Shown in pieces: positions 639 through 60,036 of a stretch of 64,000 nucleotides of DNA. This stretch comes from Squalus acanthias (taxonomy: Eukaryota), in the NCBI GenBank assembly GCA_030390025.1, contig CM059436.1:39556001-39620000 (forward strand), given 5' to 3'. Within the stretch, counting starts at the first letter, position 1; each line of letters begins with the position of its first letter. A program made the position numbers and the translations under genes. Below the pieces are notes generated by a model. The model was given only the letters and a program-made list of their open reading frames with translations. It was not told the DNA's origin and made no database searches.

Positions 639-2381
639 GGGGGGAATTTTGCGGGGGATCAGCGGGCATGATTGGTAGCGGGTTGGCTGGGAAAATGTTT
701 TTTTTTGACAGCGGGCCAGGACCCCGCTATCAACCTGCCGCCACACGCCTTTCCCAAATGTCGGGTCTGTCATCGGTGAGAAGACCCGACATGCAACGGC
801 GGGGGAGGCAATTCAGGTCATTATGGCCTGGTTAACAGAGGATTAAGAACTATTTTCAGCTCACCTTCAGAGTTTACCAGGTCACCCACCGGGTCCACGC
901 TGCTTGGGGATCACGTCAGGTAAGCAGGTCAGGAGTTGAATGGCCATGGAATCATCTCACTGCAAATGTGCTATAAAAGCTCCCATCTCACAGCTGTTCA
1001 CTTTCCAAGCTCAGGAGCTGTTGCTTACTGCATTTGGAAGACAGCTTTATGCAGGTTGCAAGTGTTTGGAGCAAACTCTGTATCCAGTATCACCTCATTG
1101 GAACAACCTCTTTCACCATTGACAGATTGCTTCTGTCATCTCAAGTTCAACTGCCATCTATTACATCAGAATGGGAACGGTTTATACTGTCTCACCTTGG
1201 TCCTCAGAATCCCACCACGATCAGCCCCAACACCAGCAGCACCAGGCACACTAGCAGCACCAACAACAACACCAACCTTCTCTGCAATCAACTGATGCTG
1301 CACAGGACACAGGGCATCAGTACCCGACCACATTGCTGCCCGGGGATGCCAGGGATGACGTCACCATGGCCAGATTTACTTCACTTGACGCTGCACACCC
1401 TCGCTACCACATGATGCGCCAGGTTGGCACCACCCCACACCAACACCATAAAGCATCCCTACAATGCCCAAGCCATTTGCTTCGCACTCATCAGCATTGC
1501 GGGGGGTACCATTCACTGCAACTCACTAAGCCACTTCCAAAGATTCACACAAATCTGTCCAAGAACACAAAGTGTTGAAAATAAAGATTTCAATGTTTGA
1601 CAGCACATTACCAGAAACTTCACATGAACATTGGCTAAAACACCCATGTGCCTACCCTTGTGTGCTGTTAGTTTGTATGATTGGACAAGGATGAGGGTGA
1701 GTGTGAGTGGTGGCTCGTGAGATGGGGAAGTGATAATGTAGATAGAGAGGGATGGGTGGAGATGCAAGGTAAGTTGGTGTGAGTAAGGATGTGCAGGAGT
1801 AGGGTAGGGAAGGCAGAGTGATGGGAATGTGATGAATGGCACAGCAGGATGAGGTTGAGTGCGGCTTGGCAGTAACTTTTCGTGATCTACTGAGATTATT
1901 GAAAGGTTTGCGCCACTGCAGCCAGGTACTCCTGACGACATCCCTGCTTGTGTCCTCCTGTGCAATGTGCAACCAGGTTGCATTGATCTCCTGGGGAGGT
2001 CTCTTCCTCCCATGGGAAGGGGAAAGAACCTCCTGCATGCTGTGACTATGGAGGGAGTCATGGCAGAGCCTGGGTGCAGCCCTGCACCTTTGTGCAGTGC
2101 TTGTCAGTGTTTGCAACACCTCAAAGCTGTAGAACCCTGACAGCATAAATGTCAAAATTAATTTGCGCATGGTCCCTTTAAGGAAACCGGCTGATGACAC
2201 ATCATCGAATGATGTCATCTAATCTGCTTCCTTTAATTGGCCGGCAAACGCGGTGGGTGGGCTTAACAAGCCCAATCAGGGGAAAATCATTTTGGACAGC
2301 GGGCTGGAGCCGGCAGCGAGACCGGGACCCGCCACCGACATCGCCCACCATGGACCTGCCGAGGTTGGTAAAATCCAGCCC
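639..2381 (+). mobile_element. Internally deleted non-autonomous Harbinger element (transposase 5' remnant on +, Myb/SANT exon 1 on -)
   Basis: Imperfect TIRs GGGGGGAATTTT / AAAATCCAGCCC and a 3-bp TSD ATT (636-638, 2382-2384). The minus-strand peptide resembles Harbinger Myb/SANT exon 1 (EVLSPSHGRKRPPQEINATWLHIAQE). Colinear with 41084-42790. Confidence 0.85.
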
Positions 2382-6394: not shown

Positions 6395-7221
6395 GCAACA
6401 CCTGCCCTTATACCTCCCCCCTTCCCACTGTCCAGGGCCCCAAACACCCCTTCCAGGTGAAACAGCGATTTACTTGTACTTCTTGCAATTTAGTATACTG
6501 TATTCGCTGCTCACGATGTGGTCTCCTCTACATTGGGGAGACCAAACGCAGATTGGGTGACCGCTTTGCGGAACACCTCCGTTCAGTCCATAAGGGGGAC
6601 TCCGAGCTTCCGGTCGCCTGTCACTTTAATTCTCCGCTCCACTCCCACTCAGACCTCACTGTCCTCGGCCTCTTGCATTGTTCCACTGAAGCTCAGCGTA
6701 AGCTCGAGGAACAGCACCTCATCTTTCGATCAGGCACTTTACAGCCTTCTGGACTCAACATAGAGTTCAACAATTTCAGATCATAACCTCGGCCCCTATC
6801 CTATATATATTTTTTATCCACACCTTTTGTTTGTGTCTTTTCTTCTCTCCCACATGGCAGCTGTCTTTCATTCTGCCAGCGCAATTTAGACTTCATCTAG
6901 AGCCATCCTTTGTTTCCTAACCTGTCCCATTACCATCTCCTTTTGCCTTGAATATCTCTTAATGTCTCTTAATCTCTCCTGCCTTCTATCCTATCACAGG
7001 CCTTCCCTTTTGTTCTTTCATCCCCTCCCCCCTTTCCCAGCCCCTACACTTGCTTAAAAATCTGTTCCATTTCCTGCTTTTTTCCAGTTCTGACGAAAGG
7101 TCATCGAGCTGAAACGTTAACTCTGTTTCTCTCTTCACAGATGCTGCCTGACCTGCTGAGTATCTCCAGCATTTTCTGTTTTTATTTCAGATTTCCAGCA
7201 TCTGCAGTATTTTCTTTTTGT
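6395..7221 (+). mobile_element. 5'-truncated Penelope-like element (GIY-YIG endonuclease C-terminus plus 3' pLTR)
   Basis: ORF 6388..6786 contains NLVYCIRCSRCGLLYIGETKRRLGDRFAEH...VACHFN...PSGLN, the PLE GIY-YIG domain. An 11-bp TSD AACCATGTTAT lies at 6384-6394 and 7222-7232. Confidence 0.9.
7086..7122 (+). ncRNA. Minimal type-I hammerhead ribozyme motif in the Penelope pLTR
   Basis: AGTT-CTGACGA-A-AGGTC-ATC-GAGCT-GAAAC-GTT-AACT shows the CUGANGA and GAAA cores, stem I AGTT/AACT, stem II with one mismatch, and a palindromic ACGT helix III. PLE minimal hammerheads are an established class. Confidence 0.75.
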
Positions 7222-7259
7222 AACCATGTTATTACATAGTGTTACAGTATATAGTACAT

Positions 7260-7982: not shown

Positions 7983-7985
7983 ACA

Positions 7986-17922: not shown

Positions 17923-17923
17923 C

Positions 17924-19152
17924 TGTAAGATTTTGGATCACAGTCACACACAGATTACCCAAAGGGTCTTAGGAGTTGTAAGGCATTTTATTAAAGAGCG
18001 ACAGTTTAAGTTAAGTACAACACGCAATCAAGATAGACATAGTCGACATACGACCGTGACAAGCAGCTGGTATCGGTCCCGATTGGACAGACGGCTGGGT
18101 CTTCCCTTCACCGTCTGTGCTAAAAGCTCTTTTGATGGCCCAGAAATTCGTCCGAATACGGGAGAGTACACACTGTGTACTCACCCATATTCGGTCCCGA
18201 AGTGCCGGTTTCCTGCATGCACTGCGCATGTGCGGGAAACCGGCACTTCCGATATTGCGAAGGGGGCAGTTCCTAAGTGAACCGCGTGCGCACTACAGGC
18301 TGTGCGCACGCAGCACACTTAGTTTTTTTTCAGGTTTGAACGCGAAGGTGAGTGTTGAAGATTTTACACATGAAAAAAGCAGGCGTAAGACCCCCTTTTA
18401 ACAAGGTAAGTAGTTAATTAAGTATTATTTTAAATTTTTTTCAACAGATTTATCTTTTTTAGAGACTTTAAAGAAAGGTAAGTTTATTTTTATAACTTTT
18501 AAACAGAATTTAAATTTTTTCAAAAATTTAAATTTTTGTTTAAAGTGGTTAATTTATTTAACTATAGTTATTTTATTAATGTGATGGTTTTTAAAAAAAA
18601 ATTAATTGAGGTTTAGCTGTTCTTTTGGGGGCAATTTGTATTCATAGCTTTGACAGCTCTTCCTGTCAAAACTATGAATGAAAGATGGTGTGCTGCCATT
18701 GGCTCTAACTGGCTCACGTGATCCCAGATGTCGCATCGAACTAACTGCGCCTCTGGGACACGCACACACTGCGCGCCGGCACCAGGGAGAGGCCCAGGAA
18801 CTGAAGTTCGTGTGGGCCAAAACCATAAAGGCAGGCGCGGAGTGCGATATCGCGGGGGATCCTTACCCCCGCGGCAACCATCGAAATCCAATTTCTGGGC
18901 CAATATCTCTTTTACTCTCTTTTTAGGGGTGGGCCATGGGTAGATTATCAAAGATACAGTCAACAACCTTTCTAGCACACAAACAGCAGACAGCTAGTCT
19001 GGAAACAAGTTCACCACCACGGTGCAGAATGTTATAACATCCACAGGGAACCAAGGACATAAGCAAATTCTAAGCATCTATCCAGTTATTCGGACACCAG
19101 TCTGAAGAGACATTTGTCTCAAGTTATTTCTTCCAATTCATGATTTCTTACA
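17924..19152 (-). repeat. 5' LTR, interrupted by a MITE
   Basis: Matches 11922-12402 apart from the 18137-18901 insertion, an ~18-bp indel and scattered substitutions. Confidence 0.92.
18137..18901. mobile_element. Harbinger-type MITE in the 5' LTR
   Basis: TIRs GGCCCAGAAATT / AATTTCTGGGCC, flanked by GAT / AAT where the other LTR has a single GAT. Same family as 56235-56884, in the opposite orientation. Confidence 0.9.
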
Positions 19153-22731: not shown

Positions 22732-23916
22732 TTGCTTCGATTGTCAAGAGACTGTGGGGGCTGCACTGATTCGGGGCGTCGTCCTGCACCTGCAGAATTG
22801 GAGGCATCAGAGACGCAGAGAGAGAGTGGCAATCATGGCCAGAGGGAGGAGGGCCAACAGGCCTCTGCACAGGGGACCTTACCTACCAGGGTATTCCGGG
22901 AACAATTCTCCTACATTCATTTGTCTGAGGAGCAGTGTTTGCGCAGGCTGCGCTTCAGCAAGGAGGTGGTCACTGAGCTCTGCCACCTGCTGCAACCAGA
23001 TCTGCAGCCTCAACTGAGGACCAGGACGTCTCTGTCGGTGGCAGTGAAGATCACAGTGGCTCTGAATTTTTATGCCACCGGCTCCTTTCAAGCAGCTACT
23101 GGGGACATTGCCAATATCTCCCAGTTCGCGGTCCATTGCTGTATCAGGGAGGTGACAAATGCCCTCTATAAAAGGAGATGCCAGTACATCTCTTTCCCGA
23201 TGACCCGGGCCAAACAGCATGAACGTGCATTGGGCTTTGCGAGGATAGCGGGCTTCCCCATGGTGCAGGGCACCATTGACTGCACGCATGTGGCATTGCA
23301 GGCACAGCATGAGAATGCAGAGGTTTTCCGAAACCGCAAGGGGTTCCACTCCTTAAATGTCCAATTGGTCAGTGACCACAGACAGCTGATACTCGCCGTC
23401 AATGCCCGCTATCCTGGCAGCAGCCACGATGCTTTCATCCTGCACCAGATTGGTGTGCCAGACCTTTTCCAGGCATCGCATCAGCCAAGTGGTTGGCTCC
23501 TCGGGAACAAGGGGTATCCACTCTGCACCTGGCTGATGACACCGCTCCGTAACCCCGACACCCCTGCCGAGCTGCGGTACAATGAGAGCCATCAAGCTAC
23601 CAGGAACATAATTGAGCAGACGATCGGCATGCTCAAGCAATGGTTCCGCTGTCTGGGCTACTCAGGAGGAGCCCTGCAGTACTCTCCTGAGCGAGTCTCC
23701 CTCTTCATAGTTGTTTGCTGCATTCTTCATAACCTTGCAATCCTCAGGACCAAGCCAATGCCACCAGGCATTGGTGCACCACCGGAGGAGGAGGAGGAGG
23801 AAGAGGAGGAGAAAGAGGAGGAGGATGATCAGCAGCAGCACCAAGGCGGGAGGGAGGCCCACAATGTTGAAACTGCAAGGGCCGTCCATCAACGGCTGAT
23901 AACAAGCCGCTTCTAG
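22732..23916 (+). CDS. Harbinger (HARBI1-like) DDE transposase, open frame but probably inactive
   Basis: 394-codon ORF with GTIDCTH, NRKGFHSLNVQ, YPGSSHDAFIL, LLGNKGY (second catalytic D changed to N), IEQTIGMLK and an acidic tail. The native start appears mutated. Confidence 0.85.
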   Translation: MLRLSRDCGGCTDSGRRPAPAELEASETQRESGNHGQREEGQQASAQGTLPTRVFREQFSYIHLSEEQCLRRLRFSKEVVTELCHLLQPDLQPQLRTRTSLSVAVKITVALNFYATGSFQAATGDIANISQFAVHCCIREVTNALYKRRCQYISFPMTRAKQHERALGFARIAGFPMVQGTIDCTHVALQAQHENAEVFRNRKGFHSLNVQLVSDHRQLILAVNARYPGSSHDAFILHQIGVPDLFQASHQPSGWLLGNKGYPLCTWLMTPLRNPDTPAELRYNESHQATRNIIEQTIGMLKQWFRCLGYSGGALQYSPERVSLFIVVCCILHNLAILRTKPMPPGIGAPPEEEEEEEEEKEEEDDQQQHQGGREAHNVETARAVHQRLITSRF

Positions 23917-24228
23917 GCCCCTACTCAGAAGATGGCTTCTGGCATGGAGAACAACATGATGGAAAGCAACCCGCAACCCCTATAGCCAGCCAAGGCAGCA
24001 ATGATTCCAAAGGCCAAACATGTACATTTTGAAAACAACAACTTTTTAAATTTACAAACTCTGTGTGTGTCATTTATTCATGACAAACTAATAGAAACAA
24101 ACACAACAAATCATTAATTAACATAACTGGTTCTCACAAGCTGGAGATAATGGCCAAAACACTAAACAAAAGTTATCAGACGAACCTCGGCCTTTAATAA
24201 AAACATTCCCAACATTTCTTGAGACCTC

Positions 24229-25983
24229 CTACTTTTTGCCCTTCCAGGGTGATCTCCATCCCTTACGCACTTCCCCCCTTCCCACCCTACTGCTCCTCCA
24301 TAATGGGGCCCCAGTGGCTGCAGCAAGGTTGCTGGAAGGCTGCTGAATGTCAGATCCTGAGACTACAGATGCCCTTGAAGGACGCCCTCGACCAGCTCTG
24401 GGCCTAGAGGCCCCGGCTGCAGACTGCACCAACTCTGCATGGGCGGCAGCAGTCTGGGCTGGCTGTGTTACAGGCGGTGGCAAGTGCAATGGGGAAGTGA
24501 CAGTGGTGGGAGCAGGAATGCTGTCATCCTGAGAGAGGACAGCACCTGCCTGCTCGACTTACACACTGGCACTCCCACGGGGCAGCACCTCAGCATCCGG
24601 AGCAATCTGCTGGAGCACAGATTGCCGGCCTGCTGCGGCACCGTGAGAGCCCCGGGGCAATGTGTCCCAACCAGCGACGATGGCAGCAGTCAGTGCTTGC
24701 GTTGAGAGCAGTCTGAGATTGGATCACAGCAGCCAGTGACTGAATTGCAGCACTAAGCAGTTGCGTTGCTTCCGCCTGTGCTGCAGCATATTGCTCCACA
24801 CTCCTTGCCAGTCCATCAATGCTTTCGGGCACCCTTCCCATTGCATCCATGAGCTGAGTGTGCATGTCCACCGCCTGGGTGTTCATTTCCGCGATGAGCC
24901 GCTCTTCCTCTGCGTCCAGTGCAGCAGGACTCACTGGCCTGCTCTCCCTCCGGGGAGAAAGCCCTCGAGCTTCCCTACCCCCATCGCGTTGCTGCAGCCC
25001 GCTGGGTCCCGGAGCTTCACCCTCATCAGACCCTTCCCCCCTGCTCCCCTTCAGGGAAGACGTGGTCCCAGTGTGGGCATGGGCTCCCTCGGGAGACGCT
25101 GGCACTGAGGCTCTGGCTTCCTCTTCCTCCTCGCCTGCGGCATCGCTCCCACTGGCTGCTTGAGGGCCCGTCTCCTCAGCTGCTGATTCACCATCTGAAA
25201 GCAGGGAGGTACAAGAGTGGCTTTAGCGTCAGGACAGGGGGGCAGTAAGGGAGCAAGGACTGGAGCGATTTAGTAAGTTGAATTGAAAGTGTAAGAGCCC
25301 GGTGTTGTGAGGGACAAGTGGAATGAGAGAGGAGAGAACTCTGATAACCTTACCATTGCTGTCCCGAATGGGGTTGACCTCTCCAGCGGCGACGGGACCG
25401 ATCACCTGGCTTGCGACGATCCTGTGGACACGCGCCTCCAGGTCGCTGAGGGTTTGCAGCTGAGGCGGCCCTCCACCCGTCCATTGCTGCTGTCGCCTGT
25501 TGTGAGATAGCTTGGCCTGCAAGAAAAAGGACGGCGTCTGAGTAAATATGCAGCCATGTGCTTGCCTGATGTGCCTCCCATAGTTGAACAGCCCTTAATG
25601 TATGCAAGGTATGGAATGTGCATGTGTGTTTTATGAGATGGCCATAGGTCTTGGATGAGTGTTGGACATTGGGGTTTTTACACCCTCTGACCATAGAGTG
25701 AGGTTGAGATGGAGGGATGGAGAGGTATTGAAAAACAGCCACTCACCCTGACGACCCGAGTGAAGTCGTTGAACTTTTTCCGACATTGTGTATGGGTCTT
25801 GGGCACCATGCTCCTGGAGGAGACGTGATAAGCCACCTCCCTCTACACTCTTCTGTAGTCGCGTGGCAATGGCCTCCTACCACTCTCTGGGTACAGTATT
25901 GCTCTTTGGCGCTCCACTGCGCCAACCAGAGCCACCAAGGCCCGGTTGCTGAAGCGCTGAGCTCGTTCCCTGCCCCTCTCCAT
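24229..25983 (-). pseudogene. Harbinger Myb/SANT-like DNA-binding protein gene (multi-exon, disrupted)
   Basis: Exon 1 at about 25747-25983 (MERGRERAQRFSNRALVALVGAVE..., internal stop) with a GTGAGT donor. Exon 2 at about 25351-25517 (AKLSHNRRQQQWTGGGPP). The last exon is low-complexity coiled coil. Confidence 0.8.
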
Positions 25984-26749
25984 AGTCCTTTGCTGCAGAT
26001 TTGATGCACAGGTCTGTCCAGGCCGAGATTCAAGGCTGTAATGAGCAGGGTGTGGCTGGAGAGCAAGCTCGACCCTCCCCTTTAAGAACTGGCCGGCACA
26101 AGTGTGTCTGTGTTCCATAGCAAACTGACATCACCTGAGCTTCACCCACGCTCTGAGTTAGCGCCTCGCTCCTCGGCCTTTGCGCCTTAAGAGAGGTGTG
26201 TAGCGCCTGATTTAGTGCTCCAATCACCTCCAGGGGCAGTAGAAGCCAAGTTTGCAGGCGGAGGCGATAATTTGCACCAGGCGCTAAACTTTGCGCCCGG
26301 CCGATAATTGCGCCCCAAACGGGGCGATACCGAATTTCTCCCCCATAGAATCTTACAGCACAGAGGGAGGCCATTTGGCCTGTCACGCTTGTGCCGGCTC
26401 TTTGAAAGAGCTGTCCAATTTAGTCCCACACCCCAGCTTTTTCCCCATAACCCTGCAAGTTGGTCCTCTTCAAGTACATGCCCAATTGCCTTTCAAAAGT
26501 TCCGATGGAATTTGATTCCAACTCCCTTTCAGGTAGTGCGTTCCAGATCTTAACAAACCTCTGTGGAAGAAATTTCTTCTCATTTCCCCTCCTCTAGTTC
26601 TTTTGCCAATTATTTGAAATCTATGACCTCTGGTTACCCACCCACTTGCCAGAGGAAATAGTTTCTCTCTACTTGCTCTATCAAAACCCCTCATTATTTT
26701 GAATACCTCGATTAGCTCTCCCCTTAACCTTCTTTGCTCTAAGGAGAAC

Positions 26750-36980: not shown

Positions 36981-37844
36981 AGTAATTATTTTAAGTAGAA
37001 CACAAAACACTGAACTTTTTCATTCCAATTTCTATCAGTTCTAAAGTTAATGAAGTACTGCTACAAATATTTCTTCGGTATAAATTCGTTATAAATGATC
37101 AACAAAAATAAGCGTAGTGGGTTTCAAAGCTGAGAGCCATGCAGAAAAAGTGGTGGAGTGACAACGCTGAGGAACAGATGTACACTGACACATATGTAGA
37201 GGGTGGTGGTTTGTGTCAGCTTCACCTCTGACTTCTGAGCGGTTCGAATCGCTCCCACTCCCTTGGTTCTAGACCTTGGACTTATTTGGGGTCAATTTGG
37301 GGTTGTGACAAAAAGTGCAGCAGACAATTGGTTTTGATGCAAGAACTTTGATCTTTATTCAAGAAAGTAAAACACCACACAAACACTCTTAACACTCTAA
37401 AAGTGGGGAAGACTTCGGTACAAGCGAGGGAAATAACATTAGAAGAATACTTCACCCCTCCCAATCCCACTTTACTAGCTAAGTTAGACTCCAGAGGACC
37501 AGGGATGATACTCACCAGAATCCTTGACAGTTAGGTTAGTTCACGGTTTTGGGGTTCACTCTATATGTCGGTTGGTGTCTGCCATACCCCGTACGCGGTA
37601 GAGGACTTCAACTGCGTATCTGGTCAGTCTTCGCGAGTCCGCTGATGCGGTAGGGTGCGTATTGGATTTATCAGGTGAGTACCCACTTTTCTTTGGTTTA
37701 GAAGTAGGGTTTAGAGTTTTTTAAGGGAAAATCTTACCCAGGGGTAAGTCAGGAGTGGATTGTAGAGTGGAAACTTTGCGGTTCTTCAGTTTTTCTTCAA
37801 GTTGGTTTTCTGTGGTCGTGGTGGCCCAAATATTGATACTTGGT

Positions 37845-38190
37845 ACAACAACAGAAAACGCTAGAAAAACTCAGCAGGCCAGGCAACATCCATGGAGAGA
37901 GAAACAGAGTTAACGTTTCAGGTCGAAGACCCTTCGTCGGAACTGAGAAAAAGGCAGGAAATGAAACAGATAAAAATGCAAGGGGGAGGCTGGGGGTAGG
38001 AATAACTATGGTAAGTAGAGACATTAAGAGATGCTCAAGGCAAGACGAGATGGTAATGGGACAGGTTAAGAAACAAAAGGTGAAGTGTGAAATGCTGGCA
38101 GAATGAGAGACAGCTGCCGTAGGGGGAAGAGAGAGGAAAAAAAAGGAAAAAGGCACGGACCAAAACGGTGGATAAAGACCAAACTAAAAA
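37845..38190 (-). mobile_element. Penelope pLTR fragment with a mutated hammerhead (37908-37944)
   Basis: Reverse complement AGTT-CCGACGA-A-GGGTC-TTC-GACCT-GAAAC-GTT-AACT is homologous to 7086-7122, with core U4 changed to C. Confidence 0.75.
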
Positions 38191-39891: not shown

Positions 39892-41011
39892 ACGCAGCAC
39901 TCCAACTTTGTGCAGGGGGTCAACACTGCAAGAGAGGTCCTCTACCCACAGGGGCCAGGAAGCCCTCCAGCAAGAACGATGTGGGACCACATCACCGAGT
40001 CCAGCAGTGTTGCCCCCACCACCTGGCTCCAGTGCCCAAAGAAGCTTCATGATCTCAGACCACTGGTTAAGGTCAGTAAATGCATCTCCAAAAGCCGTCT
40101 CCTAACAACTGCAACACCAGCCTCACACACTGCTCAATGCACAACTCCCCTCCCCCTATCACTCACCTACCAACAATCTGTACCAATCACGAGGCACATC
40201 TCCCATTCCTAGCCTCACTTCACCCCTTGGAGGAGACGGTGCAGGCCATTCTAAGCAGGGGCATGGCTGAGCCCTTGGCCAGCGGCGGGGCTGTAAGGAT
40301 ACAAGAGGCTGGTATCCTCATACGTTATCCTCCTTCCCGCATGCACCTCTTGCTTTCTTGCCCTCCCCTCACCACAACTCCACCCTTGAGTCTTTTTCAT
40401 TTCACACACCCAAGAAATGCAACCTTCCCAGCCAGTGGGTGACCAAGAAATGGGGGGGGGGAGGGAGACTGAAGAAGAAGAAGAGGATTGATTTGACACT
40501 CCCAGCCACCAGCTCCTCAAGGTCAACCAGCAAGGCCATTTGCATTGTCCCCACTGAAAGTCAGCAGCCTTCCACCAGCCATGCTGCAGCCACTGGGGTA
40601 GCACTGTGTGACATCAGTAGGATAGGCAAAGGCACACACAAGACAGTCACTAAGAGAATGCATAAGGGTGATGAGTTGATTTTTTTATGTCATATTGGAT
40701 GGATAGATGTATAAAGTTGGATTGGAAAGTTTGCTTTGTGGTAGCTTTTATTTCAGCATCGTGGCCAAGAGGATACTGTGATGGTCAGTAACAGAGGGAA
40801 GGTAAGGTGTGGGACTAATGTTGAAAGGGGAATTGGGGTCCTGGTCATTGGTACCACAGGTGATGATTCCATCCCAGATATCCCGGCCATAAAGTGGCTG
40901 TCTGGGATGTATCCTTCCATCTGCTTGCTCCTCTTCTGCTTCCTCCTGTTTGGCTTCCTCCTCTTCTACTTCTTCCTCTTCTGTGTCTTCTTCCCTCTGC
41001 GAGTGGTTGCA

Positions 41012-42860
41012 GTAAATCTGAAATGCCAGCATAAAATGCTGGAAATACTCAGCAGCTCAGGCAGCATCTCGACCTGAGACGTAGGGGGAGGAATTTTTCA
41101 GGGGGTCAACGGGTCGGGACCCCGCTGTCAACCCGCCGCCACGCACTGAACAGAAACGATACGCAGCGGTGGGGGAGGTAAGTCAGGTCATTATGACCTT
41201 GTTAACAGCCCATTAAAAAGTATTTTGAGCACACCTTTACATTTTACGAGGTCACCCATGGGGTCCACGCTGCTCAGAGATCACGTCAGGTAAGCAGGTC
41301 GGGAGTTGTATGACCATGGAATCATCTCATTACTTGACAGCTGCAAATGTGCTATAAAAGCTCCCATCTCACAACTGTTCACTTTCCAACCTCAGAAGCT
41401 GTTGCTTACTACATTTGGAAGACAGATTGAGCTTTATACAGGTTGCAAGTGTTTGGAGTAAACTCTGTATCCAGTGTCACCTCATTGGAACAACCTCTCT
41501 CACCATTGACAGATTGCTTCTGTCATCTCAAGTTCACCTGCCATCTATTACATTAGCATTGGTGCCCTTGAAACTATCTTAGCTTAGTCCTCAGAATCCC
41601 AACAAAATCAGCCCCAACACCAGCAGCACCAGGCACACCAGCAGCACCAACAACAACACCAACCTTCTCCGCAATCAACTGATGCTGCACAGGACACAGT
41701 GCATCAGCACCCGACCACATTGCTGTCCGGGACGCCAGGGATGACCTCACCATGGCCAGATTTACTTCACTTGAGGCTGTACACCCCAGCTGCCACATGA
41801 TGCGCCAGGTTGGCACCACCCCACACCAACACCATAAAGCATCCCTACAATGCCCAAGCCATTCTTTTCACACTCATCAGCATTGTGGGGGGTACCATTA
41901 TGTCTCACCATTCACTGCAACTCACTAAGCCACTTCCAAAGGTTCACATAAATCTGGCCAAGAATGCAAAGTGTTGAAAATAAAGATTTCAATGTTTGAC
42001 AGCACATTACCAGAAACTTCACATGAACATTGGCTAAAACACACAAGTGCCTACCCTTGTGTGTTAGTTATTATGATTGGACTAGGATGAGGGTGAGTGT
42101 GAGGGGTGGCTAGTGAGATGGGGAAGTGACAATGTAGATAGAGAGGGATGGGTGGAGGTGCAAAGTAAGTTGGTGTGAGTAAGGATGTGCAGGAGTAAGG
42201 TAGGGAAGGCAGAGTGATGGGGATGTGATGTGTGGCACAGCAGGATGAGGTTGAGTGTGGCTTTGCAGTAACGTTTTGTGATCTACTGAGATCATTGAAA
42301 GGTTTGCATCACTGCAGCCTGGTCCCCCTGATGACATCCCTGTTTGTGTCCTCCTGTGCAATGTGCAACCAGACTGTGTTGGTCTCCTGGGGAGGTCTCT
42401 TCCGCCCATTGGAAGGGAAAAGAACCTCCCTGCGAGCTGTGACTCCCTCCATAAGCATATGGAGGGAGTCATGAGAGAGCCTAGGTGCAGCCGTGCACTT
42501 CTGTGCAGTGTTTGTCAGTGTTTGCAGCACCTCAATTCTGTAGAACACTGACAGCACAACTGTCAAAGTAAATTTGCACATGGTCCCTTTAAGGAAACCA
42601 GCTGATGATGCATCATCAAATGACGTCATCAGATCTGCTTCCTTCAATTGGCTGGCAAACATGCTGGGCGGACTTAACAAACCCAATCAGGGGAAAATCA
42701 TTTTGGACAGCGGGCTGGAGCCAGCAGCGGGGATGGGACCCGCCACCGACGTCGCCCACTACAGACCCGCTGATTGGTAAAATCCAGCCCGTGAACTCTG
42801 TTTCTCTCTCCAGGGATGTTGCCTGACCTGTTGATTATTTGCAGCATTTTCTGTTTCCTC
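41012..42860. mobile_element. Short inverted Penelope pLTR end, split by a Harbinger insertion
   Basis: 41030-41069 is the reverse complement of 42814-42853. The pLTR sequence GACCTGA.AC|GTN|AACTCTGTTTCTCTC is interrupted at 41084-42790. Confidence 0.7.
41084..42790 (+). mobile_element. Internally deleted Harbinger, second copy of the 639-2381 family
   Basis: Colinear with 639-2381. Right TIR AAAATCCAGCCC. Flanked by GTA / GTG. The left end is uncertain by about 2 bp within a G run. Confidence 0.85.
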
Positions 42861-44769
42861 AGAGGCTTTTCTTTACCACCTGAGGCTTTGAAAATGCCCA
42901 GCAGCACTCCCTACATGCTTAAAAAACTTTTAACATATATTGCAGCAAGCCACTACTTCAATAAAATCAAACAAACCCAGTCTAAAAGCTTAAATGCAAA
43001 CTTACCTGAAAAATGTGTGTGTCCCTTTAAGAGGTTCTGACAGCGCCTCTGTCTGTCTCTTTACACGCTGGTTTCCCTGGCGTGGTTACGACCCAGCGCT
43101 GAACTCAGCACTAGGGTTGAAGTTCACCGTGGTGACATTAAGTCGACGTTGCATGCTGACTGACATCACCAATCTGCCATTTCTTTTTGCAGGGCGCTAA
43201 TACTTACCGGCAACGCTACGGGGAGGACCAAAATGGAGAACGCCGCGGGACCCGCCACCAATTTGTGAAAGAGCGGCGGCGGCCACTCTTTTGCCATTTT
43301 TTTATGGTAACGTGTAGCGTAAAGTCCCCGAATTTTTAGCCCAGAGGGTCTAAAATTCGGATGCACTGAAATGAATGCCCAAACGCCCAAGTCAGCTTTC
43401 CCTCGTTTACTATACCGTCCAGACACATACTCAATAAGCATGTTTAAATGTTGATAATTCTTACCCACATGCTAAGGAAATGAACTCTCTACTAGACAAC
43501 CATGAGTAACACAAACAAAAAGGTACACACAATAGAGGATAAAATCAGTGGAATTAAATGGAACTTGTAATATGCAACATGTATACCATCACCTGCTTTA
43601 AAGGACAGACATATCCAAGTTTAACATCGGCTAAGTTTGAATTTTGTAGAAAGAGTCAGAATTTGGATTCAAATCAGAATCATACTCTATTCATCTTGAA
43701 TTCCTCACTAAATGAAGAAGATTGAGCTATTTTGTTTTGCAACCTCACCAAATTTCACAGAAGTTTTGCAAGTCATGCACATTTCATACACATACAGTTG
43801 GAAACAACATTATAATATCACAATCAAAAATTTCCAATTAGCTAATTTAGTAGTAAATTTGGCCCTTAAGGCTTCCATATAATAATACTTGAATGAACTA
43901 TTGTTTAAATCTAGGTACTTGTCCAATAATCTCCTCAGCAACATTTACTGCTATGTTGATAGAATAGTGTTACTAAGGTTATAATGTTATTCAACTATAT
44001 GGAAATAATTATGTTTATTGTGTCTTGTATCAGATGGTATTTTTAAAAACACATTCAATGTTATCTCTTGTATAGAATGTCACAACCTTGAAAAGAGCGA
44101 GCCTGGCAGAGTAAGAGGACATTTGATAGACATGTCTGTAGCAAACACCTGCATTTCAGCACTGGTTAAAATGGGTTACAGATAAAGCCCTGATAAAAAA
44201 AAAACGAGAATAAAATTTAGCATAAACTTCTTGGCCGTGATTTTGCCAGCGCTCAGAGGGCGGATTTGGAGGCGGGTCAGGAGTTAAAATCAAAATGATT
44301 GACGGCAGGTTGCGAACCCGCTGCCATCCCGCCTCCACGCAACTTTGCAAAGTGTCGAGTCTGCGAGGTCCAATCAGACCCGACACCAAGCGGCGAGAGA
44401 GCCACTTAAGGCAGTTAACAGCTTGTTAACTGCCTAGGTAATCCGATTTTAAGAGGCTGTTCCCATTTTACTACATTTTCAGCGTGTTCCACATCGTGCG
44501 ACAAACACGCCAGCTGATTCTGCTGGGTTCAGCAACTAGCTAAATTCTTGACAGCTGCACCTGCAACTTAAAAGCGGACCTGTAACATGGCTGACTTTCA
44601 GATGCCAGAACTTTTGTTTTGAGGTTTTGGAACACATTTTGCAGGTCTATTGAGTTGTAAGTGTTTAAGCTGAGATCTATATGCACTGTGACCTCCTTGG
44701 AAAACCCTCTCCCCACATTGACTGAGCACTTATAACATCTGTTCCTCAACTGAGATATATACCAGCGGA

Positions 44770-45978
44770 ATGGGTACCATTTATACCCTCACATCCTGGT
44801 CCTCAGAATCAGAGAAAGAGCAGCCATGGCTGCAGCAGAACCAGTCACAACAGCAGCAGCAACAATAGGAGCGCCAACCTTCTCCTCAGCCAGCTGATGC
44901 TGCACAGGGCAGAGGGCATCAGCGCAGGGCTGCACCGCGCTGCAGGAGATACCCCCAACACAGGGTTTACAGGCCGAGGAGGAGCTTCCTCAACATGAGT
45001 GAGTAGCAGTGCCAAAGGAGGCTGAGACTTCCGCAAGAGGTAGTCGCTGACATCTGCGCAATGCTGCATCAACACCTGGAGCCCAGAGGAGCGGGTGGAT
45101 ACTCCTTACCAGTGGCTGTCAAAGTCACCACCGCACTCAACTTTGCTTCAGGCTCCTTCCAGGGATCAGCAGCAGACATCAGCGGCATCTTCCAGTTGGC
45201 CGCACACACTTGCATCATGCAGGTTACTGATGCCCTCTTTGCAAAGTCGCACAAATACATCCACTTCTCCATGGATGAAGCAAGTGTAACCGCGCATGCG
45301 GTTGGCTTTGCAAATATGGCAGGCTTCCCAAGGGTGCAGGGCGTCATAGACTGCACACATGTGGCCATTAGGGCACCCCATCACAACCCAACTGTATTTG
45401 TGAACCGCAAGGGCTTCCACTCCTTTAACATCCAGCTGGTGTGTAACCACATGAAGAACATTATGCATGTTTGCGCCAAGTTCCCTGGCAGTTGCCATGA
45501 CTCGTTCATCCTGCGGCAGTCTACTGTGCCTCAGCTGGTCAATCCGCCAACCCAACTTTCCGGATGGCTACTTGGAGACAAGGGCTATCCCCTGAAGATG
45601 TGGCTAATGACACCGATGAGGAGGCCATCAAATGAAGTTGTGGAGTGCTACAATGTGAGCCACATTTCCACCAGAAGCATCATAAAGCAAACCATCGGCT
45701 TGCTCAAAATGCGATTCAGATGCCTTGACAGATCTGGTGGAGCCCTACGGTATGCACCAGCCAGGGTCTCCAGAATCATCGTGGTCTGCTGTGCCCTGCA
45801 CAACATTGCACACTAGCGTGGCTCACCTCTGCCTGAGGAACAAGTGGCTCAGCGCACAGCCTCCTCCTCAGAGGAGGAGGAGGAAGAGGAGAAGGCGGAT
45901 GTGCCAGTTCCACCAGCACGCGAGCACATTGCTGGCCGTGAGGCAAGGGCTGCACTAATCCATGCCAGATTCGCGTAA
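44770..45978 (+). pseudogene. Harbinger DDE transposase with premature stops
   Basis: [25 protein letters not shown] and IIKQTIG (catalytic E changed to K). Stops at about 45004 and 45814. Confidence 0.9.
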
Positions 45979-46264
45979 GTTTACGCAGCAAACACATGTG
46001 GCTGGCACACGGAAATGGGTGTCTGGCCGACCTTCTTAACACACCATACAGCATCTGTACAATAAACTGTGGGTTGTTATCACTCTCAACACCATCATTA
46101 CAGATGAAAGGCACCCTGACCCCTGACTGTGCAACTTTCATTTTTGAGCACACATAGGCCAACTCTTTGAATCTTTGCCATCGCATTTCTTTATTACAAT
46201 TGAAATAATGATGAGAAACTTCACTTTATATTAGATCAAAACACCCAAGTGACTACCCTTGTGA

Positions 46265-47819
46265 CTATTTGTGTGTTAACTTTCTCTTACGCATCCTTCT
46301 ACGTGGTGCTTCCACTGTGGCTTCAGCAGATGTTGAGGCACCTTGCTCATTTCCATGCTGCGCCTGCTTAGACGCCTTTGGCGGGCGTCCTCTGGGTTTG
46401 GGAGCCTGGGAGGGTTTGGCAACAGTCTGCTCCTCCTGCGGCTGTGCAGGGGCTGAGACAGCAATCTCAGTTGGATGAGGAATCTGGGGCTCTGACCGAG
46501 GGCTCCGTGGTGGCATGGGAGTGTGAGCGCTTGGAGAGGAGCCCACACTTCCTTGTTGTCGACCACCAGCATCCCTCTCATGGGTCACCCGCACTTCACT
46601 GCTAGCAAGCAGCTGGAGAGCACCTTGCTGCACATCAGTGGGGCCATGAGGACCTGTCTCTGTACTGACAGTCCTCATAACAGGGACGTCCATGTACCTC
46701 TGGTTCCTCTCCTCAATAGATGCCCATCTATCCTCCATAGCAGACCATCTATTTAGAAGTGTCACCATGTTCATTTGAGTCTGGCGATTTATGTCCTCCA
46801 TGGCGGTTGCCATCCTTTCCATGGCGACACCTACATTCGCCATTGCGTGCACCACAGCATTGTTCATGTTTGAGATGGATTCCACCATTCTCTGCACACT
46901 CACAGTTACAGTGGATGCAAACCCTGTCAGAGACTCCTGCACTTGTTCCTGAAGTTCCAGCACCGCTCTCTTTCTGGATGGCCCCAGAGGCACAGCGTCC
47001 ACATGCAGCTGAGCAGAGCTAGGAGCGTCCAGCGCCCTCTGACGAGGACTCTGCTCTGATGTCCCTGTCTCCACTCGTCTGCTGATGCTCACTTGTGAGC
47101 TGTGATACACCAGGTGACAACACTAATCTATCTCGCGAATGACCCACCGAGGTGTGCATCTCTGCGCTGGTGCTGGGTGCGCTCATTTCTGCTGACACTG
47201 CACCCTCAGAAGCTGCAGCTTCCTCTGAGGAGTCTTCCAGCTCTTCCTCCTGGACAGTGGAGTTTGAGCGAGAATGTTGGAGTGTGTAGAGAATCCATAG
47301 CATAGATGCTTAGAGGGAGACAAAGATGGAGTGAGGTGCCAATACCAAGGGCCCTCCCTGTGCGTTGTTAGTTGTTGCCATTGCATAACAGTGATAGTGA
47401 GTGTGAAGGGTGCATAGTAGAATGGTGAAGTGATTCTGTACATAGAGAGAGAGGGATGGTTAAGGGTGGAAGGGATGTAAGGGTAAGTTGGGATGTGCAG
47501 GAGTAGGTTGACAATGCAGAGTGCTGGTGATGAGAAGAGATGGGGAGCAGATTAAAGGTAAGTGTGATGTTATACTCACTTTTGCTGAGCGTAGTAAATC
47601 ATTGAACCTTGTCCTGCGCTGAACCCAGGTGCGTGAGTACAAAGACCTGGCACTAACCTCCTCAGCAATTTGCAGCCAGGCTGCCTTGGTTTGCTGAGGA
47701 GGCTTCCTACGTCCATTTGAGGGAAACAGAACCTCCTCGCGCCCTCTCACTCCCTCAACAAGAGCATGGAGGGAGTCATCATCGAATCTTGGGGAAGCCT
47801 TGGCTCTTGAAGCAGTCAT
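46265..47819 (-). pseudogene. Harbinger Myb/SANT-like protein gene
   Basis: Exon 1 at 47580-47819 (MTASRAKASPRFDDDSLHALVEGV...WLQIAEEVSARS...RTWVQRRTRFNDL) with a GTGAGT donor. The last exon has a coiled coil and a basic NLS-like end RRRMRKRK. The EKRAHN-type exon 2 was not found. Confidence 0.8.
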
Positions 47820-48967
47820 CTCGCTATCAGTAACACTGAGAAGCAGCAGAATGTGAATGAAACACCACAAGGCTGCATGGGCCCCTTAAATGCAGCTGAA
47901 TGGAAGACATCAGCAGAGGCGAGCAGCAGACCCGAACCCACTGATTGGGCCGGGTAATGCACACGGCGGGCTTAATAAGCCCAGTTAAAGCAAAATAGTT
48001 ATTTCAGAGTGGCTCAAACTGGCAGCAGGACCAGAAACCGCCGACCAGCCAACCCGACGCCAACCCGCCACCTATGGTAAAATTGCAGCCCTTGTGTTGA
48101 TTACCTGATGCTTAGGGTGGAATTTTAACACCGCTACGACAGGTGGGAGAGGATCGGTGGAGGGGGGGTGGTGGTGAGTGGGTTAAATTGGTAAATTTAC
48201 TCTCAATCTAGCTGGTTGCCAGGTGGGAAACGAAGTAAAAAAATTCTAATGTTGTCTTGCGGTTAAATTTGGCAGGACCTCTGTCTTCCCGGTATTTCCG
48301 GGTTTCGTGGCCGCACATGCGCCCCCGTTCCTTCCCCGCCTCCCCGTAAATATCAGGGTGTGAGTTTCTGGTATCATCCATGACATAACATCAATGTCAA
48401 AGTCCAGGATTTACCTACAGTCACTGTAGTTAAATTTGTACATTATATGATGTAACAAATACAGCAATCCGATATCTCAAAAAAATCACCCTGGTAGATA
48501 GTAGGAGTACAGAAAGAATTTAAGAAGTTGTATTCAGGCAAGTCACATTAAAACTGATGTTTTGACACTAGTGAATTCTGAAAATTGGTTAAGAGTCCCA
48601 AATTCCATCATCATCATAAGAAGGCCACACTCGTGACCAAGAGACAGACACAGATGCCCAATAGAGCTATAGAAACAAAATTGTACTTTAGTTTTGGTTA
48701 GTTTTTTTAAAATTGCACATTCTCAAAATCCAATTTTTGGGGAAATGAATCCTCAAACCCCATGTAACAAAGTTGGTCAATAACGAGTTAAACCCTTTAT
48801 CAAACGTTAGGGATATTTAAAATATAATTTGCTTTGAAAATGCTTTCTTAATTATTAAGGTGCGCCATTTATGGCTCGGATTAAGAATACAGGTAGGTTC
48901 CTGCTAAACACATACACAGCTGCTGTTGCACGGAGCAGGCTCGAAACCCAGCTCGCTCCACAGTCTG

Positions 48968-49942: not shown

Positions 49943-50430
49943 ATGACCTGCCTTTTACTAAGAAAGGGTGTTGCAGTGTTTTATGTAACTGAAGTTCTTT
50001 TATTTATATGTTACATTTTGTCAAGATTTGTCAATTCGCAGGGATATTTTCCAAGGCTTGAAAACATAGGAGCATACAAAAATGTGTCTACTGTGCCATC
50101 TCAGGCAACCTGTGGATTGCCAGTGAAGAACACGTTCTGTCTTAGCACAACTGCTGTGGAAAGCATATTGTCCTGTACCCAGCAATTCTGCATTCAAGAC
50201 TGCCCTTATAGATCTTTCACTCCCTCCTTTGCCAATCTTTTCTCCAGAGGCTTAGGCACTTGTGTCACTGAGGACAAAAATTATTTGAGACCAGGGTCTT
50301 CAAGGAATACCACTAGCTTTATATTTTGGAATCAAACAGATTGTTACACTACGCCTCCTCTTCAAAACCTTGGGTTTGGAAGTTCATTTACCTTAGCAGT
50401 ATGGCTGAAACCTGACCACAAGGATGTAAT
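49943..50430 (+). CDS. USH2A: Usherin, first coding exon (signal peptide and N-terminal region); the exon may begin at the acceptor near 49705
   Basis: QGYFPRLENIGAYKNVSTVPSQATCGLP...CTQQFCIQDCPYRS...SFTLAVWLKP matches the usherin N-terminus as I recall it (human RGLFPRLENVGAFKKVSIVPTQAVCGLP...). Phase-2 donor AT|GTAAGT. Confidence 0.96.
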
Positions 50431-51449
50431 GTAAGTAATGCAACAGGTGTTGGGTAATATCATTTTCAAAATAATTGAAGGATGTGATGAAAATGTTATA
50501 TTGGGTCCACACAAAATACTTAATAATCCATGGCATTACTTTGGCTAGCAAGCTATTGCAATTACATTGCAGTTATACCTATAAAAGAATAACCCTTAAC
50601 TGTGTATACTTGTTACACTAGTTAGTATAATCAAATTGTGATATTCCTACCTATAATCTATATAAGGGCAATTTACTATAGTTCACACATGCAAGTTAGA
50701 AAATGTTCCAACACCCTTTCAATACAATTAAAGCTAAAATTGATGGAAAAGAATTAACAAATCATAAAAAGTGATAGGTTTGAAATTGCAGTAATGTACT
50801 TAAATGAATAATTATACTTTGCTCCATTTTTCAGTTTCATGCATTGCTGTATTACAAATCCTGGCATTCTGTACATTTTCAGCATAATTTTGTGATTGTT
50901 TTTGGCCAATTTTGATTTGTTTCCTTCTCTGACTTCCATCTGTGGCTGGGTCATTAGATAGGGGGTAACCACTTTCACAGGGCATTTTATCTGCTTCTGT
51001 GCATTTTCTCACAAATATCATTTTTTCAATTTCCTGAGATAGTAAGAGGCATTTTATCAGCTTTGTTAGTTAGTTCTTAGTCCTAACTAATAGTAAGGAG
51101 CTGAGAATTTATTTTCTTTGTAGAGGAGTTAGAAATTGCAGGCATGAATTAAATACCCATCCCTAGTCTCACAGTCTTATGATGTCTTTATACTGCAAGC
51201 ACTGGTTTGACACCATTATCTAGTTGAGAACAAATATCACTGAGTTATACTGCTGCAGACTTATAGATCTATTTGAAAAGATATATTCTAATGAAATGCT
51301 AGATGTTGGTGAAGGGCCGACCTGAAACTCAGCTCTTTACTAACAGTAAAATTATAAAGGTGGTTTCAATGGATCACTTGGGATCTTTTTAAATATTAAG
51401 AATAAAGATTAGAAAGGTGGTTTGCATCAATTGCAGGTATGCCACAGGT

Positions 51450-56156: not shown

Positions 56157-57122
56157 GATATAAAATAAAAACAGAAAATGCCAGAAATACTCAGCAGGTC
56201 AGGCAGCATCTGTGGAGGGAGAAACAGAGTTATTGGGCCAGAAATTCGGTTTTCCGGCTTCCTGCGGGTGCAAGCATCGCGCGCGTACTTACCTACCGCG
56301 CCTACCGTTGTGTTTTGGGCCCACGAGAACTTCGGGTCCTGGGCCTCTTGCAGCTGCCGGAAGACCTGTCAAATCTATGAATTGAAATCGGCCCCAAAAC
56401 AACACCTAAACTTCAAATAAATTTTTTAAAAAACATCAGATTTTTAAAATAACTATATGTTAAATAAATTAACTACTTTAAACAAAAATTTAAATTTTTG
56501 AAAAAATTAAAATACTTTTTAATGGTGCTAAAAATAAACTTACCTTTCTTTAAAGTATCTAAAAAAATAAACCTGTTGAAAAAATGTTTAAATTGTAATT
56601 AATTAACCACTTACCTTGTTAAAAACGGGTCTTGCGCCTCCTTTTTAAAAGCTCAGCTTCTTCCATACTTACCTTCCCGGAGAAACCTGAAAAAAAACTG
56701 AAGTTCGCTGCGTGCACGCAGCCTCTCCCGCGCACGCGGTTCACCTCTGAACCCCTCCCTTCACGAGACCAGAAGTTCTGGTTTCCCGTGCATGCGCAGT
56801 GCATGCAGGAAACCGGCACTTCAAGTGACCTTATGGGTGAGTACACAGCGCGTACTCACCCGACAAGCGCCGAATTTCTGGGCCAATGTTTCAGGTCGAT
56901 GACCTTTCGTCAGAACTGGAAAAAGTTAGAGATGTAACAGATTTTAAACAAGTGCAGGGACAGGGAAAGGGAGGAGGGAAGGAAAGAACAAAAGGGAAGG
57001 TCTGTGATAGGGTGGAAGGCAGGAGTGATTAAAGGACAGAAGTTCTGATTGTACAAAACAACAGGAGATGGTAATGGAACATTTTTTTTCAGATTTCCAG
57101 CATCCGCAGTATTTTGCTTTTG
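56157..57122 (-). mobile_element. Penelope pLTR insertion with partial inversion; its hammerhead (56228-56917) is split by a MITE
   Basis: 11-bp TSD TATCATTACAG (56146-56156, 57123-57133). Minus-strand pLTR followed by a plus-strand terminal piece. Core CTGACGA at 56907-56913 on - with a perfect stem II AGGTC/GACCT. Confidence 0.85.
56235..56884. mobile_element. Harbinger-type MITE (family of 18137-18901)
   Basis: TIRs GGGCCAGAAATTCG / CGAATTTCTGGGCC, flanked by ATT / AAT. AT-rich centre and subterminal hairpins shared with 18137-18901. Confidence 0.9.
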
Positions 57123-57866
57123 TATCATTACAGTATATACTTGTTTTAGATTTAAGTCTGAATGGCTAAGACATACACATCATCAAACCCATATATTATC
57201 TACGTAAAATGACTGGGCTTGATTACCGGTATTGTGCCTAATAAAATTATTGCATTTCCAGTCAATATTCTAACCAAGACAATTTTGCTAGTAAAGGTCA
57301 GAATTTCATGGTCTTCATATTTTTCATCATAACTATCAGATTTGGTTTAATTCTAATTGATTGTGGTCGTAGAAAATAATTTATTTTAATGATAGTGATA
57401 TTACCACTCGCACCAATACCCTGACAATGAAATTTGAAAATAATATACAGAAATTATTCAACATAATTCCTTAAGCCTCACACTTTCTTTCTTTAACAAT
57501 TTTCTTTCACACCTATTTCTGTTACATCTGCCTATAATGCCTGACTGTCACATTGGAACTTACTTGTATGTAATAATATATTTACCTTTGGTTGAGTCCT
57601 CCCAGCCCCAGTTTGTGGCCACAAGGTAGGTGGTGCATTCCACAGTGCCACACATCTGGGGCTTACTGAAATCCGAATTCTTGCCTCCCAGCTTCCTCCA
57701 GAATCTTTTCTGTCCGATATATTATTTTTATAGTTTAATGGTGCTTTTAATATATTAGTTACCTTTTTACATTTTTATACTTCTTTCAAATTAAAAAGTG
57801 GCTGTGGCCACTATGGAACATGCTCCCATGCTTGCCTGAGGTCGTTTGTTGGATCTCTCCCACTGC

Positions 57867-58030: not shown

Positions 58031-60036
58031 TGGCTTGTTGCAAACTGCTCCCGGATGTCAGGCACTCCTGTGGCGTGTTGCCACCCATACTTCTCTGTCA
58101 TGTTTCCAGACATGTCTTTGGCCAATCCATCTCCAGTGATCAGACACCTGGCCCATCCTTGGCCTTTTTCCAGCCATCATATTCCCCACTCCACAACCCC
58201 CCATGAGATCCTGGTCTGCCAGATCTAGTCCCGCCTGAAGCTGGTTTTAAGCATGAAGACCATTTTAAATACTGTATTTGCTAGCATAGAAGTTAGCAAA
58301 TATAGTAATACCAGTTTTCATTCTTAAAAACTGATGGCGAGGAAAAGGCCGAGCAGATTGGACCACATTCTCCTGAGCTTCACCCCACCCTGCCACCTGC
58401 ATCCCTCTGCACCATTTCAATTATTCCAGACATTGAGACCTTCATCCTGGTGCTTCCAAATCCTGGAAACCCTCTCCTGTTACCCCCTCCCAAAGTTACC
58501 TTGCAAGACCCCCACACACCGATATTTCTGCCAGTGCTCACAGACACCAGTACTCCCCACCATGCTCCCAGACCATGGGATCCCAACCTCCAGTATTTCT
58601 GGACCCTGAGACTGCCGCACAGTGCACTAGAAATTCCTGCTTTCCACCAGTCCTCCAGACCCTTGTACCCTCCTGAACTCTACCACATCTGGGGACCTGT
58701 CCCACTTCTTGCTGACAGACCCTGGTACATTCTTTAATTATCTCAAAGTCTTGTTCCTCCCCTTACCTACAATGTTGCCATGCCTTGCCTTCACTGCTGT
58801 CAAACCATAGCTTTCCCATTACTGCCAGAGCCCAGAAATGATCAAATAACAAAAACCCACATTCCGCCACCAGTCTTCCACAGGACTGCCATGACCAACC
58901 ACCAAACCATAATACTGTACTACCAAATTAGATCAACTCTCACAACTGCTGCTGAGCTCCTCACTACTGCTAAACCCCTCATATTTACCTCAAATCTCTT
59001 ATATGATACCTACTATCTTCTTGTATCCTGGGCTTTAAACAGTGAGACAAAAATTAAGTACATTGATAAAAGAACAAATAGTAATTTACAGTTTTTATGG
59101 AAAAATAGCCAGAGTTTTGGAATTCAATCCCAAAAATATCAATGAAAATCCAGGAATTCCATATGCTAAAATTAGATTTTGTAATGCTGTGTAACACACA
59201 ATGTGGCCCCCAGCATTAGGAATGCCATGGGAGATACAAAATGTATAATATATCACAGACACCAGTACTCCCCACCATGCTCCCAGACCATGGGAGGTTA
59301 GTTTAGGCACTTTGCTGCACAAAATCTTAACTGGATTATATCCACAACAATGTGGCACTGATAGACACATATTTGTCCAGTTTAAAGTAGTCAGTCAGAT
59401 TTTCGAAAATGAATAATGTACATCTCTTGTTCACGGTGTACATCTGTCTGTTTGGTTCGGAATAAACACCTCCCTAATTTGACTCTTCTCACGTCCAAAC
59501 TAGCCCTAGGCATGTATTGTTCATTCAGAATGCACATCTCATTCAAATTTGCTGAATTAAAATATTCATGTTGGGGAGACTTTAATAGCCCGGATTTTGC
59601 GGTGGCAATGATGGCAAAACTATCACCGTACGCCATCATTACTCCTCTGAAATTGACAGCAACTTTTGGAATCAGTGCATGCGTAGATAAACGCGGAAAT
59701 CCAGAAGTTGCTGTCAGTTATTCCCTGCTCCTCCACAGGTTGCGCTGTGGAACTCCCCGGAGCCGGGAATCAATTCAAATCACACCGAATGATGAAAACT
59801 TCCCCATTACACTGGAATATCGCTGTTAAACTCCCCCCCGCCCTGAAACGTTAAGTCTTGTTGAGGTGTAACTGGGTTTTAACGGCGTATTGACTGCTCA
59901 ACAGCTGTTCTGGCCCTGAAAAACTTTTTTTTACATTTGTGGAATGTCAGATTTTTTCATTAATATGATAAGAATTACATGTGATTTTTAATATAATTTT
60001 TAATGATATTTCAGCATTTACCTTAATTCTATGTGT

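Follow-up and report, generated by a model that had tools for sequence, protein, structure and literature searches.

Two Harbinger-type insertions at one triplet of a Penelope pLTR in shark DNA are best read as a DNA target preference

The window, a stretch of 64,000 nucleotides of Squalus acanthias DNA analysed here as a whole, contains four copies (p1 to p4) of a Penelope pLTR repeat, and in two of them, p3 and p4, the same homologous triplet is occupied. The two inserts are unrelated Harbinger-type elements. They probably share this position because, of the sites nearby, the DNA around the triplet comes closest to their preferred palindromic 15-bp target. The pairing is real and beyond chance locally, and is best read as an abundant repeat supplying sites for a target preference already known in Harbingers. 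The surroundings are repeat-rich vertebrate DNA with 45% GC, and an nhmmer search with an intact copy as query gives no fifth pLTR locus at E<0.5. A literature search, with Repbase and most subscription papers outside its scope, returned no account of Harbinger insertion into Penelope hammerheads. The features discussed below are collected in Table 1.

Table 1. Positions of the pLTR copies, their parts and the inserted elements in the window
Feature	Position	Strand	Basis or remarks
p1, intact pLTR with minimal hammerhead motif	6838..7222	+	3′ of GIY-YIG ORF end; constrained fold
p2, intact pLTR, core CCGACGA, triplet empty	37834..38140	-	sequence, nhmmer
p3, inverted 5′ arm, an inverted copy of the Penelope pLTR 3′ part	41006..41069	-	blastn and nhmmer
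p3, forward stub with helix II 3′ strand and GAAAC box	41070..41080	+	sequence, alignment, motif search
p3, duplicated triplet on the left side, GTA (intact copies: GTT)	41081..41083	+	sequence, alignment
p3, inserted 1,707-bp non-autonomous Harbinger deletion derivative, 12-bp imperfect TIRs	41084..42790	+	homology
p3, duplicated triplet on the right side, GTG	42791..42793	+	sequence
p3, remainder with helix I 3′ strand and tail	42794..42857	+	sequence comparison, alignment
p4, pLTR whose CUGACGA...GAAAC core is complete, interrupted at the p3 triplet (ATT / AAT)	56158..57124	-	sequence, alignment
p4, inserted 650-bp non-coding TIR element with GGCCCAGAAATT ends	56235..56884	-	TIR pattern, 3-bp duplication
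Sister of the 1.7-kb family, outside any pLTR	639..2381	+	TSD ATT/ATT; flanks fit motif
Sister of the 650-bp family, within an LTR	18137..18901	+	TSD GAT/AAT; other LTR shows empty site

The Penelope pLTR and its hammerhead motif

The repeat has the traits of a Penelope-like pLTR. It lies directly 3′ of the end of a GIY-YIG ORF (6382-6783 upstream of p1; Pfam E 5.8e-5, above cut-off), it is inverted in p3, and it forms opposite-strand joints. In p1 it comprises CUGACGA (core, 7090-7096), helix II, GAAAC (7111-7115), a palindromic ACGU and a helix I of 4 bp, with the triplet at 7116-7118. The intact copies p1 (7111-7124) and p2 (37.9 kb, minus strand) both read GAAAC-GTT-AACTCT. When the core is forced unpaired in the fold, all parts of a minimal type I hammerhead are present in both, with a helix II mismatch in p1 and CCGACGA as the core of p2. 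The unconstrained fold of p1 gives no hammerhead, and Rfam reports none at gathering score, the only match in 6950-7250 being unrelated (E 4.6). As judged from sequence and constrained folding, the architecture is that of the minimal hammerhead of Penelope pLTRs with a putative self-cleavage activity. Under standard hammerhead numbering GUU would be the cleavage triplet.

The motif resembles the minimal PLE hammerheads of Cervera and De la Pena 2014 (PMC4209133) in its CUGANGA and GAAA boxes, a short helix I (4 bp here), an unpaired base before helix II, a palindromic ACGU in place of helix III and a pLTR location adjoining the GIY-YIG ORF, with opposite-strand pairs in both. It differs in that sharks are not named in the accessible text of that account, and the shark hammerhead is a prediction that no Rfam model fits. 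According to the same text minimal hammerhead motifs show weak cleavage and act as dimers, and the available part of PMC11167929 describes a Penelope ribozyme of Anolis that cleaves only with protein and is dispensable for insertion in vitro. Elsewhere in the window, a word resembling the 3′ hammerhead core (CTGAAACGTTAA, 59839-59859) lies inside a TIR element at about 59587-61447 and carries no insert; the vicinity of 51310-51340 may hold a faint hammerhead-like relic, seen by eye and negative with nhmmer.

The two split copies

On its left side p3 reads CGACCTGAGAC (41070-41080) and then GTA (41081-41083). The insert (41084-42790) starts with GGGGGAGGAATTTT and ends with AAAATCCAGCCC, and is followed by GTG (42791-42793) and AACTCTG. 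Both flanks align gap-free to the intact pLTR copies, with the triplet position present twice. On the minus strand p4 reads GAAAC-ATT, the 650-bp element and AAT-AACTCTG. An initial annotation of this DNA had reported that another element splits p3 at the hammerhead triplet and that two of the four copies are filled there by different elements; both statements agree with the sequence and with the four loci found by nhmmer. Its further statement that the GTT position is duplicated holds for the position, which is doubled; the letters are GTA/GTG in p3 and ATT/AAT in p4 and never GTT.

In the simpler version of the history of p3 the target would have changed beforehand to GTA or GTG, with a single A/G transition afterwards. 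The left TIR is two bases longer here than in the sister copy at 639, and the left breakpoint would be exact only if these two bases are a small insertion within the G run. A reading shifted by one base, with a canonical TTA duplication, was compared by eye and rejected since it requires more changes than the GTN reading.

The p3 copy consists of an inverted 3′ arm joined to a stub that begins in helix II. The inverted arm matches pLTR positions 7139-7200 on the opposite strand (blastn, nhmmer) and differs from the forward arm at 7 of 40 bases. Because the stub begins in helix II behind the inverted 5′ junction, the CUGANGA half is missing, as had been noted earlier: a motif search finds neither CTGANGA nor CCGANGA within the 63 bases 5′ of the triplet. 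The GAAAC box is changed to GAGAC. Contigs of four sequencing runs (X1, X6, X17 and X18, of 21) were aligned to 6830-8000, and the inverted junction of p3 (7105/7139 in p1 coordinates) occurs in 2, 4, 0 and 3 of them, respectively. These contigs carry 30-47 letters on their shorter side, compared with 14 in p3 before its insertion, and so cross an empty triplet. The core of p3 was lost in a Penelope-type rearrangement that is found without a Harbinger and that probably preceded the insertion. Inverted pLTR junctions cluster in helix II: opposite-strand joints of 7087-7109 to 7138-7147 (p1 coordinates) recur in contigs of all four organisms.

Two open frames on the plus strand (50042-50431 and 61471-61659) are host-gene exon-like, with weak Laminin_N and Laminin_G_3 matches below cut-off, and presumably resemble the N-terminus of usherin/USH2A. 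The p4 copy would sit in the intron between them.

The inserted elements and their relatives

The 1,707-bp element keeps the start of a transposase region and a decayed Myb exon (E 0.066, below cut-off). It is 87.6% identical to its sister over 1,640 columns and matches both end regions of a 3.9-kb element (44233-48090) at 68-82%. The longer element encodes DDE_Tnp_4 (E 2.7e-36) and Myb_DNA-bind_5 (E 1.1e-8), both above the Pfam cut-off, and this homology identifies the 1.7-kb element as a Harbinger deletion derivative. The family has short TIRs starting with GG and 3-bp TSDs, ATT/ATT in the sister and GTA/GTG (two of three bases alike) in p3.

The 650-bp element is 82% identical to its own sister. 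It shows no alignment longer than 25 bp to the 1.7-kb element, no blastn match at E<1 to 44233-48090 and, apart from the sister copy, no match at E<1e-6 to the remaining elements of the window. The features that point to a Harbinger type are its GG-starting TIRs, the 3-bp duplication and the shared flank motif. The TSDs of this family, ATT/AAT and GAT/AAT, each agree at two of three bases, and the flank motif described below is matched at 4/4 positions in p4 and at 3/4 in the sister.

The elements are assigned to the superfamily only, because their TSDs fit neither TWA nor CWG. In the accessible text of Han et al. 2015 (PMC4482050) a TWA TSD defines the PIF/Harbinger group, and the NuwaI group has the TSD CWG, TIRs starting with GGG and a DDE plus Myb/SANT gene content. 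Among the 12 two-ended elements of the window TTA is found on both sides of one and on one side of another, and CWG in none; the GGG start of the TIRs and the gene content fit the NuwaI group. Neither Harbinger-type family is pLTR-specific, each having a sister elsewhere in the window, and the pLTR is not their main target there (one of two copies per family and 2/12 two-ended elements).

Several other arrangements of TIR elements are seen in the window. A 4.1-kb Harbinger at 22266-26344 has an open transposase frame of 404 codons (DDE_Tnp_4 E 1.2e-34) and a perfect ATA/ATA duplication, and sits at the start of a SINE-like repeat. The Harbinger element 9909-20025 is split by an LTR retroelement (11922-19155) that itself carries two TIR insertions (14524-15213 and 18137-18901). 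With its left end moved one base later, the outer TSD of 9909-20025 is ATG/ACA, a pair that fits ACG after CpG mutation on opposite strands. At 43342 / 43346 the right TIR of one element, three bases (AGA) and the left TIR of another follow each other, which suggests that one target triplet was reused by a second insertion. In the two copies of the 650-bp family (18137-18901 and 56235-56884) AAT adjoins the same end and the targets differ (GAT, ATT); each copy contains several splice-donor-like AGGTAAG words.

Target preference of the TIR elements

A flank motif fixed beforehand, A-N-N-Y-[3]-R-N-N-T, was tested on ten two-ended TIR elements outside the pLTRs. It is complete in six, matched at three of four positions in another three and at two of four in the last. 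The background is 1.9% of window positions, which gives p ~1e-8 for 6/10, and all four elements with identical TSDs carry the complete motif (p ~1e-7). The twelve two-ended elements stem from pairing by eye of about 24 ends among 161 TIR-like motif matches. In six of the ten the TSD pairs are mismatched or the ends uncertain. Ends with no partner were excluded, for example 2413, 9854, 43342/43346, 53805, 62229 and 63321, several of which misfit the motif by eye.

A symmetric matrix built from the same ten elements, without the two pLTR insertions, approximates A-R-A-N-W-Y-[NWN]-R-W-N-T-Y-T with a palindromic flank. The pLTR site TGAAAC-GTT-AACTCT agrees with 10/11 consensus positions. Four settings were compared. 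Of the 368 sites of p1 the triplet ranks first under three settings and second under the other, and of the 273 sites of p2 it ranks first under all four; between 0.06 and 0.23% of window sites outscore it. The filled sites reach 5.3-8.4 bits (p3) and 7.9-10.2 bits (p4) with this matrix. Because a matrix that leaves out the pLTR insertions ranks the triplet first or second, a DNA target preference probably accounts for its choice. With the four-position motif alone, p1 offers 14 matching sites, and the triplet is not singled out. The first TSD base of GTT, G, is disfavoured, being rare in the matrix, and the score climbs from 6.9 to 10.2 bits once CpG decay has turned GTT into ATT.

Under a uniform insertion model, with 12 insertions across 44,275 unmasked bases, the chance that two of four copies are filled at one shared site of about 300 is p ~1e-4. 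The matrix predicts an occupancy of 1.6-4.8% per copy, for which 2/4 filled has p 0.002-0.013, a value that holds for a window not picked after the fact. The excess over the matrix expectation could reflect the coarseness of a matrix derived from few insertions, or the choice of window after the fact, and it leaves room for a stronger preference.

Contigs of the four sequencing runs

Between 64,000 and 102,000 contigs per run align to 6830-8000, and the pLTR is very abundant in all four organisms. The triplet is not among the loose ends listed (the best six in each of the four runs, with 4,431 further rows), the smallest counts among those listed being 128, 242, 177 and 158; the counts for X1 and X18 exceeded the counting limit. 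The 15 joints listed include none between the triplet and the neighbouring TIR element. Filled copies thus seem not to form a dominant class of breakpoint; the contig data neither prove nor refute a hotspot. The coincidence of the two insertions is beyond chance within the window; a genome-wide transposon-on-retrotransposon hotspot, as proposed initially, is putative and does not appear among the contig loose ends listed. Scans with the pLTR pattern gave 0 hits in viral contigs, 0 in prokaryote genomes and 0 in metagenomes. Relaxing the pattern brought up 99 metagenome loci, with no pLTR or Harbinger copy among them (best blastn matches 21 bp, and 77 bp at 71%).

DNA sequence, catalytic constraint and other explanations

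In the favoured explanation a transposase/Myb complex would read the flanking bases, approximately A-R-A-N-W-Y on either side, and a 3-bp staggered cut would duplicate any triplet that lies between them. The very abundant pLTR would present many good sites of identical sequence, with only a minority filled. Insertion would not involve RNA catalysis, and the ribozyme would be relevant only since its GAAAC-N-U core spells about half of the target motif. The sister copies outside pLTRs and the lack of CUGANGA in p3 both count for this DNA preference. The earlier proposal that targeting depends on DNA sequence and not on ribozyme activity appears sound by the same token, p3 lacking CUGANGA and reading GAGAC.

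Five of the ten matched motif positions lie in the hammerhead core strand (G, A, A and C of GAAAC and the central T), the other five in or beyond the helix I strand. The helix I strand is constrained by pairing, not by sequence. The ribozyme plausibly explains why half of the landing site is kept in the source elements. A catalytic constraint would be a partial and indirect contributor at most, because G is disfavoured, CpG decay improves the score, p3 is incapable of forming a ribozyme and both families insert elsewhere. The suggestion that the hotspot is maintained by catalytic RNA constraint is not sustained, with five of ten positions outside the core in addition to the disfavoured G and the gain through CpG decay. 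A related scenario, in which selection for self-cleavage of GAAAC-N-U seeds landing pads at the cleavage triplet and Harbingers have sharpened their preference towards them, is unlikely; if it were true, each insertion would destroy the ribozyme of that copy and the catalytic constraint would be a weak spot exploited by another mobile element. Quite unlikely, too, is adapted homing, with Harbingers whose preference is tuned to a hammerhead core because the repeat that carries it, abundant and dispensable, is a safe harbour, and with the site renewed by ribozyme selection in source Penelopes. The five motif positions inside the core strand GAAAC-N-U and the filling of 2/4 copies against the matrix expectation of 1.6-4.8% speak for it. 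However, the pLTRs hold only 2/12 two-ended elements of the window, both families have sisters elsewhere, the CpG-decayed site outscores the ribozyme-type site, and the 15-bp palindromic preference in zebrafish is described with no Penelope link in the available text of PMC3016246.

The remaining explanations concern the history or the shape of the site. Each unit of pLTR and Harbinger could have arisen once or a few times and then been copied by segmental duplication or retrotransposition, in which case a genome-wide hotspot would be weaker than it appears. Such amplification is very unlikely here. The surroundings of the p3 and p4 composites have no mutual similarity and their pLTR architecture differs (an inverted stub in p3 versus a 230-bp forward arm in p4), and unrelated elements in unrelated flanks require at least two separate insertion events; the comparison of flanks that had been called for thus argues against one amplified composite. 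It is highly improbable that the triplet is exposed by a hairpin or cruciform in the DNA or by an RNA:DNA hybrid from ribozyme cleavage. The uninterrupted p3 formed an inverted repeat whose loop region held the triplet, and the triplet lies within the palindrome AACGTT, but p4 is filled at the same place without an inverted arm, p3 is unable to form the ribozyme, and the primary sequence score alone already puts the site first. Least probable of all is a coincidence spotted after the fact with no true site preference behind it: only four copies are available and the triplet is missing among the breakpoints listed, yet the uniform model gives p ~1e-4 and the other insertions show a strong flank motif.

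Comparison with known Harbinger elements

An extended target preference of Harbinger elements has been published, spanning 9 bp for plant elements and 15 bp for vertebrate ones (accessible text of PMC2836001 and PMC3016246). The nearest counterparts are Harbinger3_DR and Harbinger3N_DR of zebrafish (Sinzelle et al. 2008, as cited in the available parts of PMC3016246 and PMC2836001), which share with the shark elements a DDE transposase plus a Myb/SANT protein, short TIRs, a 3-bp duplication and a palindromic target preference that spans some 15 bp. The zebrafish consensus, given in these parts as AAACACCWGGTCTTT, fits the degenerate shark pattern at A -4, W -2, Y -1 and their mirror images. 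Compared with the literal consensus the pLTR triplet agrees at 7/15 positions; 12% of window sites score this high. The central triplet is varied in the shark (ATT, TTA, ATA, CTT, GTR), whereas the zebrafish elements are described with CWG. The accessible zebrafish Harbinger3_DR accounts mention no insertion into a Penelope hammerhead.

The shark families also resemble the Tourist-like MITEs of mPing/PIF in having non-autonomous derivatives and a target preference beyond the TSD (PMC2836001, available text). The same text reports that plant deletion derivatives and MITEs are mobilised by two-gene Harbinger elements. In contrast to plant mPing/PIF, with a 9-bp preference around TTA/TAA, the information in the shark sites lies mostly in the flanks. 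A survey of teleosts found the elephant shark to be without Harbingers and asked for a check of other cartilaginous fish (PMC9179366, accessible part).

Significance

The two split copies illustrate how a known target preference can nest one mobile element in another. Recognizing them aids repeat annotation, since a pLTR can be split in this way. The abundant repeat offers many identical target sites for measuring the Harbinger preference and for dating the order of the Penelope and Harbinger waves. If occupancy of the triplet exceeded that of score-matched sites, this would suggest a DNA transposon that has adapted to home on a ribozyme motif.
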